DNA of 64,000 nucleotides from Escherichia coli. GTDB taxonomy: Bacteria; Pseudomonadota; Gammaproteobacteria; Enterobacterales; Enterobacteriaceae. Shown piece after piece: positions 49,431 to 50,053 of this stretch. The position numbers and the translations under genes are program-made. Position 1 is the first letter of the stretch, and each line of letters opens with the position of its first letter. The notes beneath the pieces were generated by a model. It saw only the letters and a list, made by a program, of their open reading frames with translations. It was not told the DNA's origin and made no database searches. The DNA lies in the NCBI RefSeq assembly GCF_044324875.1, contig NZ_CP172185.1. One strand, written 5' to 3'.

Positions 49431-49964
49431 GTGATGGTGGTTGGGGAAGGATTATTCAGCGCTGCGCGCTTCACCCTTCGGGTCGTTGCCTGCGGCAACG
49501 CTCTCTCGCTGGCGCTCGAGTCGAACCTTGGTCGAAGCTTCTCATCCTTCCCCGCTTGGGCAGAATATTTAATTACGGATTCGTTTGAGAGTTCAGGGAC
49601 TTTTGAAAGTGATGGTGGTGGGGGAAGGATTACTCAGCGCTGCGCGCTTCGCCCTTCGGGTCGTTGCCTGCGGCAACGCTCTCTCGCTGGCGCTCGAGTC
49701 GAGCCTTGGTCGAAGCTTCTCATCCTTCCCCGCTTGGGCAGAATATTTAATTACGGATTCGTTTGAGAGTTCAGGGACTTTTGAAAGTGATGGTGGTGGG
49801 GGAAGGATTACTCAGCGCTGCGCGCTTCGCCCTTCGGGTCGTTGCCTGCGGCAACGCTCTCTCGCTGGCGCTCGAGTCGAGCCTTGGTCGAAGCTTCTCA
49901 TCCTTCCCCGCTTGGGCAGAATATTTAATTACGGATTCGTTTGAGAGTTCAGGGACTTTTGAAA
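49431..49964 (-). repeat. Three tandem 178-bp repeats downstream of tRNA-Tyr (rtT-type units)
   Basis: Units begin at 49431, 49609 and 49787 (exact 178-bp period); units 2 and 3 are identical, unit 1 has a few substitutions. Each begins with a copy of the tRNA-Tyr 3' end (TGGTGGTGGGGGAAGGATT). Confidence 0.85.
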
Positions 49965-49968
49965 GTGA

Positions 49969-50053
49969 TGGTGGTGGGGGAAGGATTCGAACCTTCGAAG
50001 TCGATGACGGCAGATTTACAGTCTGCTCCCTTTGGCCGCTCGGGAACCCCACC
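49969..50053 (-). tRNA. tyrT: tRNA-Tyr (anticodon GUA)
   Basis: Reverse complement reads GGTGGGGTTCCCGAGCGGCCAAAGGGAGCAGACTGTAAATCTGCCGTCATCGACTTCGAAGGTTCGAATCCTTCCCCCACCACCA, the class II tRNA-Tyr with encoded CCA. Only one full tRNA is present at this locus. Confidence 0.95.

Follow-up and report, generated by a model that had tools for sequence, protein, structure and literature searches.

How does an Escherichia coli strain come to have a single tRNA-Tyr gene, followed by three 178-bp repeats, at a locus where K-12 has two such genes in tandem? The question is raised by a 64,000-nucleotide stretch of E. coli DNA (contig NZ_CP172185.1), which we refer to as the window. Textbook E. coli genetics already covers this locus, with its RtT repeats and the instability of its two tRNA genes, and what the window presents is an ordinary copy-number polymorphism. 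We consider it very likely that the window carries a natural single-gene tyrT allele, from which one tRNA-plus-spacer module has been lost and in which three RtT units have been kept.

The region is the classical tyrT tRNA-tyrosine operon of E. coli and Shigella. Its tRNA-Tyr and RtT repeats lie in the 962 bp between purU (50213-51055, minus strand) and narI (48573-49250, plus strand), which is also where the tyrT operon of K-12 MG1655 sits, and the tRNA is preceded by the expected -35 TTTACA, -10 TATGAT, and GC-rich discriminator. The elements bounding the locus are as follows:

50104..50131, minus strand: tyrT promoter, with -35 TTTACA at 50131-50126, a 16-nt spacer, and -10 TATGAT at 50109-50104
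50103-50095, minus strand: G+C-rich discriminator GCGCCCCGC, directly after the tyrT -10
50054..50096, minus strand: 5' leader of the tRNA-Tyr precursor, about 40 nt, identical to K-12
49969..50053, minus strand: tRNA-Tyr(GUA), 85 nt, CCA encoded (ARAGORN, gta anticodon; Rfam RF00005, 53.4 bits against a threshold of 29)
49269..49290, plus strand: intrinsic terminator hairpin of the convergent narGHJI operon, a 9-bp stem and then a T run (terminator scan)

A promoter scan gives the tyrT promoter 10 of 12 matches, with TG preceding the -10, and an identical promoter sequence serves as a "tyrT promoter" homology arm in PMC2887954. Over the 159 bp 5' of the tRNA, a single base (50172) is changed relative to K-12. 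The leader, of about 40 nt, is presumably cut off by RNase P, as we take from the classical pre-tRNA-Tyr literature. On the other side, narI ends at 49250 and the narGHJI terminator marks the distal limit of the tyrT region. Two further elements were observed between the repeats and narI. The first is a REP-like imperfect palindrome, GTTGTTCGGATAAGCGAAGCGCATCCGACAAC, at about 49320-49350, in the stretch separating the narI terminator from the last RtT unit; K-12 has this palindrome as well. The second is a promoter-like match on the minus strand at 49357-49384 (ATGGCA, 16-nt spacer, TACAAT, 9 of 12), 3' of the array toward narI, which is probably due to chance.

The original prediction was that the locus contains only one complete tRNA-Tyr, at 49969-50053 on the minus strand, and both ARAGORN and the Rfam tRNA model bear this out. 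The gene forms a cloverleaf with a GTA anticodon and a long variable arm, scores above threshold with the detectors, and has exactly the sequence shared by K-12 tyrT and tyrV. ARAGORN reports it as the one tRNA gene of the 64-kb window. A second tRNA was sought in 49250-50212 with Rfam at E<=1 and permissive filters, and across the whole window with ARAGORN, and none was found; a second full tRNA-Tyr near the locus was the result named beforehand as speaking against a single gene. The 34-bp leader that precedes tyrV likewise had no match anywhere in the window in a search allowing 3 mismatches. The K-12 reference form of the operon, two tandem tRNA-Tyr genes behind one promoter, is not the form found here.

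Immediately 3' of the tRNA is a tandem array of RtT units. Tandem Repeats Finder places it at 49429-49987, with a period of 178, 3.1 copies, 98% matches, no indels, and a score of 1090. Counted in a register that begins after the CCA of the tRNA, its parts are:

49791..49968, minus strand: 178-bp unit 1, with RF00391 (RtT) at 49791-49922, 129.9 bits, full length
49613..49790, minus strand: 178-bp unit 2, identical to unit 1, with RF00391 at 49613-49744, 129.9 bits
49435..49612, minus strand: 178-bp unit 3, with RF00391 at 49435-49566, 134.2 bits; its terminal tRNA-end copy has 1 mismatch, at 49442
49429..49434, minus strand: first bases of a fourth unit, TCACTT, which account for the "0.1" in 3.1 copies; the similarity stops after them, at the end of the Tandem Repeats Finder array (49429)

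All three units match RF00391 over model positions 1-130, with a gathering score of 45 bits, and they lie where RtT RNA is expected, directly 3' of tRNA-Tyr, and every unit closes with a repeat of the tRNA 3' end, CCA included. The 19-nt 3' end of the tRNA, AATCCTTCCCCCACCACCA, occurs four times (49969-87, 49791-809, 49613-31, and 49435-53, the last with 1 mismatch), where shuffled sequences would be expected to contain none. In the register that starts from these copies, the claim that every unit opens with the tRNA 3' end is correct. A base-by-base comparison in that register finds 0 differences between the tRNA-proximal units (49986-49809 and 49808-49631), and the perfect identity between units 1 and 2 extends over 283 bp. 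The distal unit (49630-49453) differs from the proximal pair at 3 positions, 49525, 49473, and 49455, and is followed by a 24-nt partial fourth copy. The array had been described as three exact 178-bp repeats; the number and the period stand, while the exactness does not extend to the third unit. The two repeats said to be identical, the second and third in plus-strand order, are indeed so and are the two nearest the tRNA.

We expect that the sigma-70 promoter with its G+C-rich discriminator would drive a transcript in which a short leader precedes a single tRNA-Tyr(GUA) and the three RtT units in tandem. A stable RtT RNA of about 171 nt is released in K-12 by processing of the tyrT transcript, according to the passage of PMC3318445 that cites Bösl & Kersten 1991, and RtT processed from this transcript has been called a "likely" modulator of the stringent response (bioRxiv 10.1101/2024.07.17.603846; PMC3318445). 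PGAP attaches the note "rtT sRNA, processed from tyrT transcript" to elements of such arrays. From this literature and these annotation notes, we infer that the units of the window would be processed in the same way, each presumably being trimmed like a tRNA at its terminal tRNA 3'-end copy, including the CCA. The rttR annotation of K-12 is 171 nt long, begins 7 nt after tyrV, and stops at the CCA closing the first unit, and by analogy rttR would correspond in the window to 49961-49791, 49783-49613, and 49605-49435.

Comparison with the K-12 operon (tyrT-tyrV-rttR/tpr, b1231-b1229) shows what is missing. The two loci share their flanks, the tRNA sequence, the 178-bp period, 3.1 trailing units, and Tpr. 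In K-12, however, a 209-bp spacer separates tyrT from tyrV, which is followed by 3.1 units; this agrees with the two genes and about 3.1 repeats that the original prediction gave for K-12. The window has one tRNA and lacks the 209-bp spacer. That spacer is itself composed of a divergent 175-bp RtT-like copy (132.9 bits, ending in a tRNA 3'-end copy) plus a 34-bp leader. The window joins the tyrT upstream flank to the tyrV downstream flank at one tRNA. Its units are also more homogeneous than those of K-12 (98% versus 95% matches), and its proximal pair has a private C at 49881 and 49703. A second two-gene form is seen in locus L003, which has a tRNA, 34 bp, a tRNA, and 3 units, and most of the closest matches to the flanks of the window take this same form.

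The prevalence of these forms was determined in 5,426 complete E. coli genomes. The tyrV leader joined to the 5' half of a tRNA, which marks two tandem genes, is found in 4,832 genomes (89%). The K-12-type long spacer accounts for 1,921 of these (35% of the genomes), and by subtraction about 2,900 have the short spacer. The plain single-gene junction, consisting of the tyrT leader, the tRNA, and the RtT head, is present in 193 genomes (3.6%), with exactly one junction site in all 193, and about 400 genomes, again by subtraction, have other forms, including the B2/ST131-type allele. For the single-gene count, we used a 165-nt junction query at an E-value limit of 1e-70, which only an uninterrupted alignment can pass; counting by coverage was dropped because overlapping pieces get joined. 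The census further shows 2 places matching tRNA-Tyr per genome in single-gene strains versus 3 in two-gene strains. The window strain probably has two tRNA-Tyr genes in all, one at the tyrT locus and the other at tyrU, outside the window, and gene inventories should assign two tRNA-Tyr genes rather than three to single-gene genomes.

The number of RtT units varies as well. Single-gene alleles contain 1 (L004), 2 (L010, an O157:H7 strain), 3 (L002, L009), or 5 (L008) units. In a systematic sample with a flanks-only query, the narI and purU flanks were joined in 44 of 60 genomes, and all 44 had two tRNA-Tyr genes. Their annotated RtT units numbered 0 in 1 genome, 1 in 11, 2 in 6, 3 in 11, and 4 in 15, and the range over all E. 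coli genomes examined is 0 to 5. The single-gene configuration of the window is thus uncommon but far from unique, a recurrent polymorphism (193/5,426 genomes) that is not peculiar to this strain, and these sequence comparisons indicate that copy number at the locus changes frequently. The census also displays how variable the tyrT locus is within one species, in its spacer forms, the single gene, the number of RtT units, and the B2-type cluster allele. As a separate observation, the single-gene, one-RtT locus L004 (NZ_CM151386.1) has an IS621 (IS110-family) transposase at 2037-3017, just 3' of the locus, in place of the usual narI-ward tail.

The best matches to the flanks of the window are 99.4% identical (H173/H174) and others are 99.0-99.1%; they mostly have a short-spacer double gene with 3 RtT units. 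For the nar-purU region (47500-52000), the best identity among the 5,426 complete genomes is 99.0-99.1%. For 51000-64000 the corresponding value is 98.6%; a single record reaches 99.6% as 3 joined pieces over 19.5 kb. The lineage of the window has no close representative among these genomes. The 51000-64000 query also matched about 15,000 places on plasmids because of an IS1 copy. This is a 167-aa ORF at 56809-57312 (minus strand) with the IS1 transposase domain PF03400 (261 bits), located between ORFs at 55958-56575 and 57656-60331, whose counterparts in L006, judged by gene order, are tdk and adhE.

Could the single gene instead be an assembly artefact, with identical repeats collapsed where in reality there are two tandem tRNA-Tyr genes or another number of 178-bp units? 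Double-gene strains have tRNA copies with 100% identity across 85 bp, the 283 bp of perfect identity between units 1 and 2 exceeds typical short reads, and some single-gene records fall inside otherwise double-gene clonal groups such as O157:H7, all of which lend this explanation some substance. Yet the same junction recurs in 193 "complete genome" assemblies with varying unit numbers, reads or k-mers longer than 85 nt separate the 119-bp tRNA period, and the 34-bp spacer has left no trace in the window. Single copies are, moreover, said to have been derived genetically from the double gene by unequal recombination, in work by Russell and colleagues in 1970. We therefore judge a collapse unlikely. 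The tRNA count of the window is probably safe because the 119-bp period contains only 85 bp of identity and because the allele recurs in complete-level assemblies. Greater doubt attaches to the number of identical units, since short reads cannot count units through 283 bp of identity. For assembly quality control, this means that both tRNA and RtT unit counts call for long-read support.

If the single-gene allele is real, as we favor, did the window lose a gene, or did K-12-type strains gain tyrV by duplication of an ancestral single gene? We scanned one genome per bacterial species with an exact pattern for the RtT core, which gave 90 stretches, 89 of them in Enterobacterales, and checked 40 loci. 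Two tandem tRNA-Tyr genes lie upstream of RtT in 35 of the 40 loci of other Enterobacterales species, with both short and long spacers. Another 4 have one tRNA-Tyr (Xenorhabdus, Sodalis, Acerihabitans, and a locus whose end is cut off), and 1 is truncated before the tRNA. Rfam likewise finds two tRNA genes with 1-6 RtT units in Salmonella, Citrobacter, Enterobacter, Klebsiella, Kluyvera, Pantoea, and an Escherichia sp. The doubled state of 35/40 loci indicates that the single tRNA-Tyr of the window is a derived loss. The single genes 5' of RtT in the distant Xenorhabdus, Sodalis, and Acerihabitans are what a gain of tyrV would have in its favor, but two genes are present in 89% of E. coli genomes and in 35/40 species, including Buttiauxella, and single-gene strains are scattered over lineages and have unlike unit sequences, which makes a gain highly improbable. 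On these phylogenetic comparisons, we regard two genes as ancestral for Enterobacteriaceae and the one gene of the window as derived. Among the arrays examined, the largest and most homogeneous is that of Enterobacter ludwigii (L054, 1447-2410), in which two tRNA-Tyr genes precede six RtT units repeated in tandem at a 167-bp period, five of them with equal Rfam scores.

The loss would be explained by exchange between direct repeats. The tyrT locus has three classes of these that are able to recombine: the 85-bp tRNA, the 175/178-bp RtT unit, and the 19-bp tRNA-end copy. The ancestral form, which is also the commonest, has two identical tRNA-Tyr genes in tandem, and it would lose one tRNA-plus-spacer module if its 85-bp tRNA copies recombined homologously or if replication slipped between them. 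A junction like that of the window, with one tRNA and no 34-bp leader, is what such an exchange is expected to produce. The deleted module would most likely be 119 bp (the tRNA and a 34-bp spacer), from a short-spacer parent, or else 294 bp if the parent had the long spacer; the one guide to this choice is the flanks of the nearest relatives, which are at best 99.0-99.4% identical. Because the deletion endpoints fall inside identical 85-bp repeats, they cannot be mapped. A like unequal exchange between 178-bp units could shift RtT copy number and homogenize the units. The original prediction had proposed that the strain lost or gained a unit by unequal crossing-over. Gain or loss between direct repeats is in keeping with our reading, but the missing piece is a tRNA-plus-spacer module rather than a 178-bp unit, and the event is a loss. 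The differing backgrounds and unit sequences of single-gene strains, together with their presence inside the young O157:H7 clone, where single-gene strains (L010) have two-gene clone-mates, point to recurrent and recent single-gene events. A keyword literature search on unequal recombination at tyrT returned irrelevant papers only.

The units themselves bear marks of such exchange. The private C at 49881 (unit 1) and 49703 (unit 2) is absent from all 17 other distinct units compared, which come from nine loci. Since units 1 and 2 are adjacent, identical, and share this C, one of them must have been copied from the other very recently, through duplication or gene conversion. In a per-unit alignment, units within a strain tend to be more alike than units between strains, which we interpret, from the sequences, as concerted evolution. 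The per-unit alignment was used because small indels make an ungapped, position-wise comparison with locus L002 misleading.

Part of the 5' arm of the RtT unit is an inverted, imperfect copy of the T-arm/acceptor region of the tRNA. In the RtT consensus fold, GGGGAAGGAU and AUCCUUCCCC form a 10-bp closing stem and CACCACCA stays single-stranded. The C at 49881/49703 converts a U-A pair of the Rfam model to a non-canonical C·A. Minimum free energy folding of one RtT unit was no better than that of shuffles (z = -0.93, not significant). In an RNAalifold consensus of 10 units, double changes affect only 2 pairs, and the consensus pairs 49473/49455 differently from the Rfam model; we do not claim covariation. 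The changes in unit 3 at 49473 and 49455 (C->T and G->A) fall on both sides of this one RNAalifold pair, turning C-G to U-A, and the spacer copy of K-12 has the same T + A combination. The two changes may be compensatory, although the Rfam model gives 49473 a different partner, with which it forms a G-U wobble.

A more speculative possibility is that the copy-number state reflects selection on the dosage of tRNA-Tyr and RtT rather than neutral slippage. The CCA end of RtT would then act as a decoy or buffer, strains would tune 1-2 tRNA genes against 0 to 5+ RtT units, and the identical C-bearing pair would be a recent, selected amplification. If this were true, the targets of the decoy or buffer could be tRNA 3'-end processing enzymes or the tRNA-Tyr-targeting nucleases of anti-phage systems. 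We think this improbable and retain the loss of a module by exchange between repeats as our reading.

The array also contains open reading frames on both strands. Three long ORFs starting at 49431, 49585, and 49763 on the plus strand had been noted and dismissed as genes, and they are present as described. The ORFs relevant here are:

49431-49766, 49585-49944, and 49763-50062, plus strand: three overlapping ychS-like ORFs of 99-119 aa (from the ORF list), together spanning 49431..50062
49812..49901, minus strand: tpr-like ORF in unit 1, 29 codons, with the translation of K-12 Tpr (b1229)
49634-49723, minus strand: intact second copy of the tpr-like ORF in unit 2, with the same translation as the unit 1 copy
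49471-49545, minus strand: tpr-like ORF in unit 3, shortened to 24 codons by a TGA at codon 25

Units 1 and 2 thus each contain a predicted 29-codon ORF with the K-12 Tpr sequence inside an RtT unit; in public databases, this exact sequence has the name "Protamine-like protein." The plus-strand ORFs are 91% identical to K-12 YchS (b1228). Neither they nor a 94-aa minus-strand ORF match a Pfam or NCBIfam family, and the exact sequences of both are absent from a collection of 15 billion proteins. The ychS-like cluster has members of 66 to 247 aa, all "hypothetical," with lengths that track repeat number, and all are from E. coli except one partial record labelled Staphylococcus aureus.

Might these frames nevertheless encode a real protein, with the repeats being a protein-coding tandem array? 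At 99-119 aa they are long for antisense frames, and K-12 has the annotated homolog YchS at 91% identity. Against this, there is no protein family, the lengths of the homologs (66-247 aa) follow repeat number, and in all 8 RefSeq loci with RtT units PGAP leaves the array free of CDS calls. The period also argues against coding: 178 is 3x59+1, so each ORF meets successive units in changing frames and the same DNA would be read in two of them. The ORF at 49763-50062 passes antisense across the tRNA-Tyr gene, and the strand opposite the ORFs scores strongly against the covariance model of a known RNA. The window has open frames but no coding evidence for YchS beyond them, and we give a coding array almost no credence. 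From their sequences, we judge the plus-strand ORFs to be homologs of an annotated yet dubious K-12 ORF, ychS, and not genes, as had been supposed. For annotation, they are best left uncalled, with the three RtT units and the tpr ORFs labelled instead.

Elsewhere in the window, two tandem ldr/rdl type I toxin-antitoxin modules lie at 32464-33302, 535 bp apart. Their rdlD RNAs are at 32702-32767 and 33237-33302 (plus strand), and their Ldr-like peptides (…MTLAQFAMIFWHDLAAPILAGIITA[VA]IVSWWRNRK) are encoded at 32547-32681 and 33082-33216 (minus strand). K-12 has three modules at this locus, and one Ldr toxin is annotated in the ST131 locus L007 (NZ_CP015085.1). The window would then contain a second tandem array of variable copy number.

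The tyrT allele of the window can be compared with several known systems. The type locus of Rfam RF00391 has RtT directly 3' of tRNA-Tyr, as the window does, and the only difference is the C·A pair in units 1 and 2. The single-gene alleles of NZ_AP022287.1 and NZ_CP122722.1 (ETEC1747) also resemble the window in having one tRNA and three RtT units between purU and narI. They differ from it, for example, by about 18 substitutions in purU and by units that are 5-13 bases apart, and alleles of this kind look like independent occurrences in their sequences.

The B2/ST131-type allele (NZ_CP015085.1, L007, O25b:H4) shares with the window a single tRNA-Tyr behind the same tyrT promoter and beside purU. 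In place of the whole RtT array and tail, however, it has a 7-kb lipid-metabolism-like cluster (23367-30248), whereas the window retains the array. The cluster begins 16 nt past the single tRNA-Tyr, and no integrase is annotated there. Its seven genes are a KAS III-like gene, an epimerase/dehydratase, an MBL hydrolase, an F390-synthetase-related gene, a PAP2 phosphatase, a sterol desaturase, and a fatty-acid desaturase.

The closest parallel in mechanism comes from classical genetics. The 178-bp repeat is said to have been described by Egan and Landy in 1978 and by Rossi and co-workers in 1981, and the su3 (supF) tRNA-Tyr doublet reportedly segregates singlets by unequal recombination. These classical su3 events were seen in transducing phages and laboratory strains. 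The su3 doublet-to-singlet system and the window are alike in locus and in the mechanism that we propose, and they differ in that the product in the window is fixed in a natural isolate.
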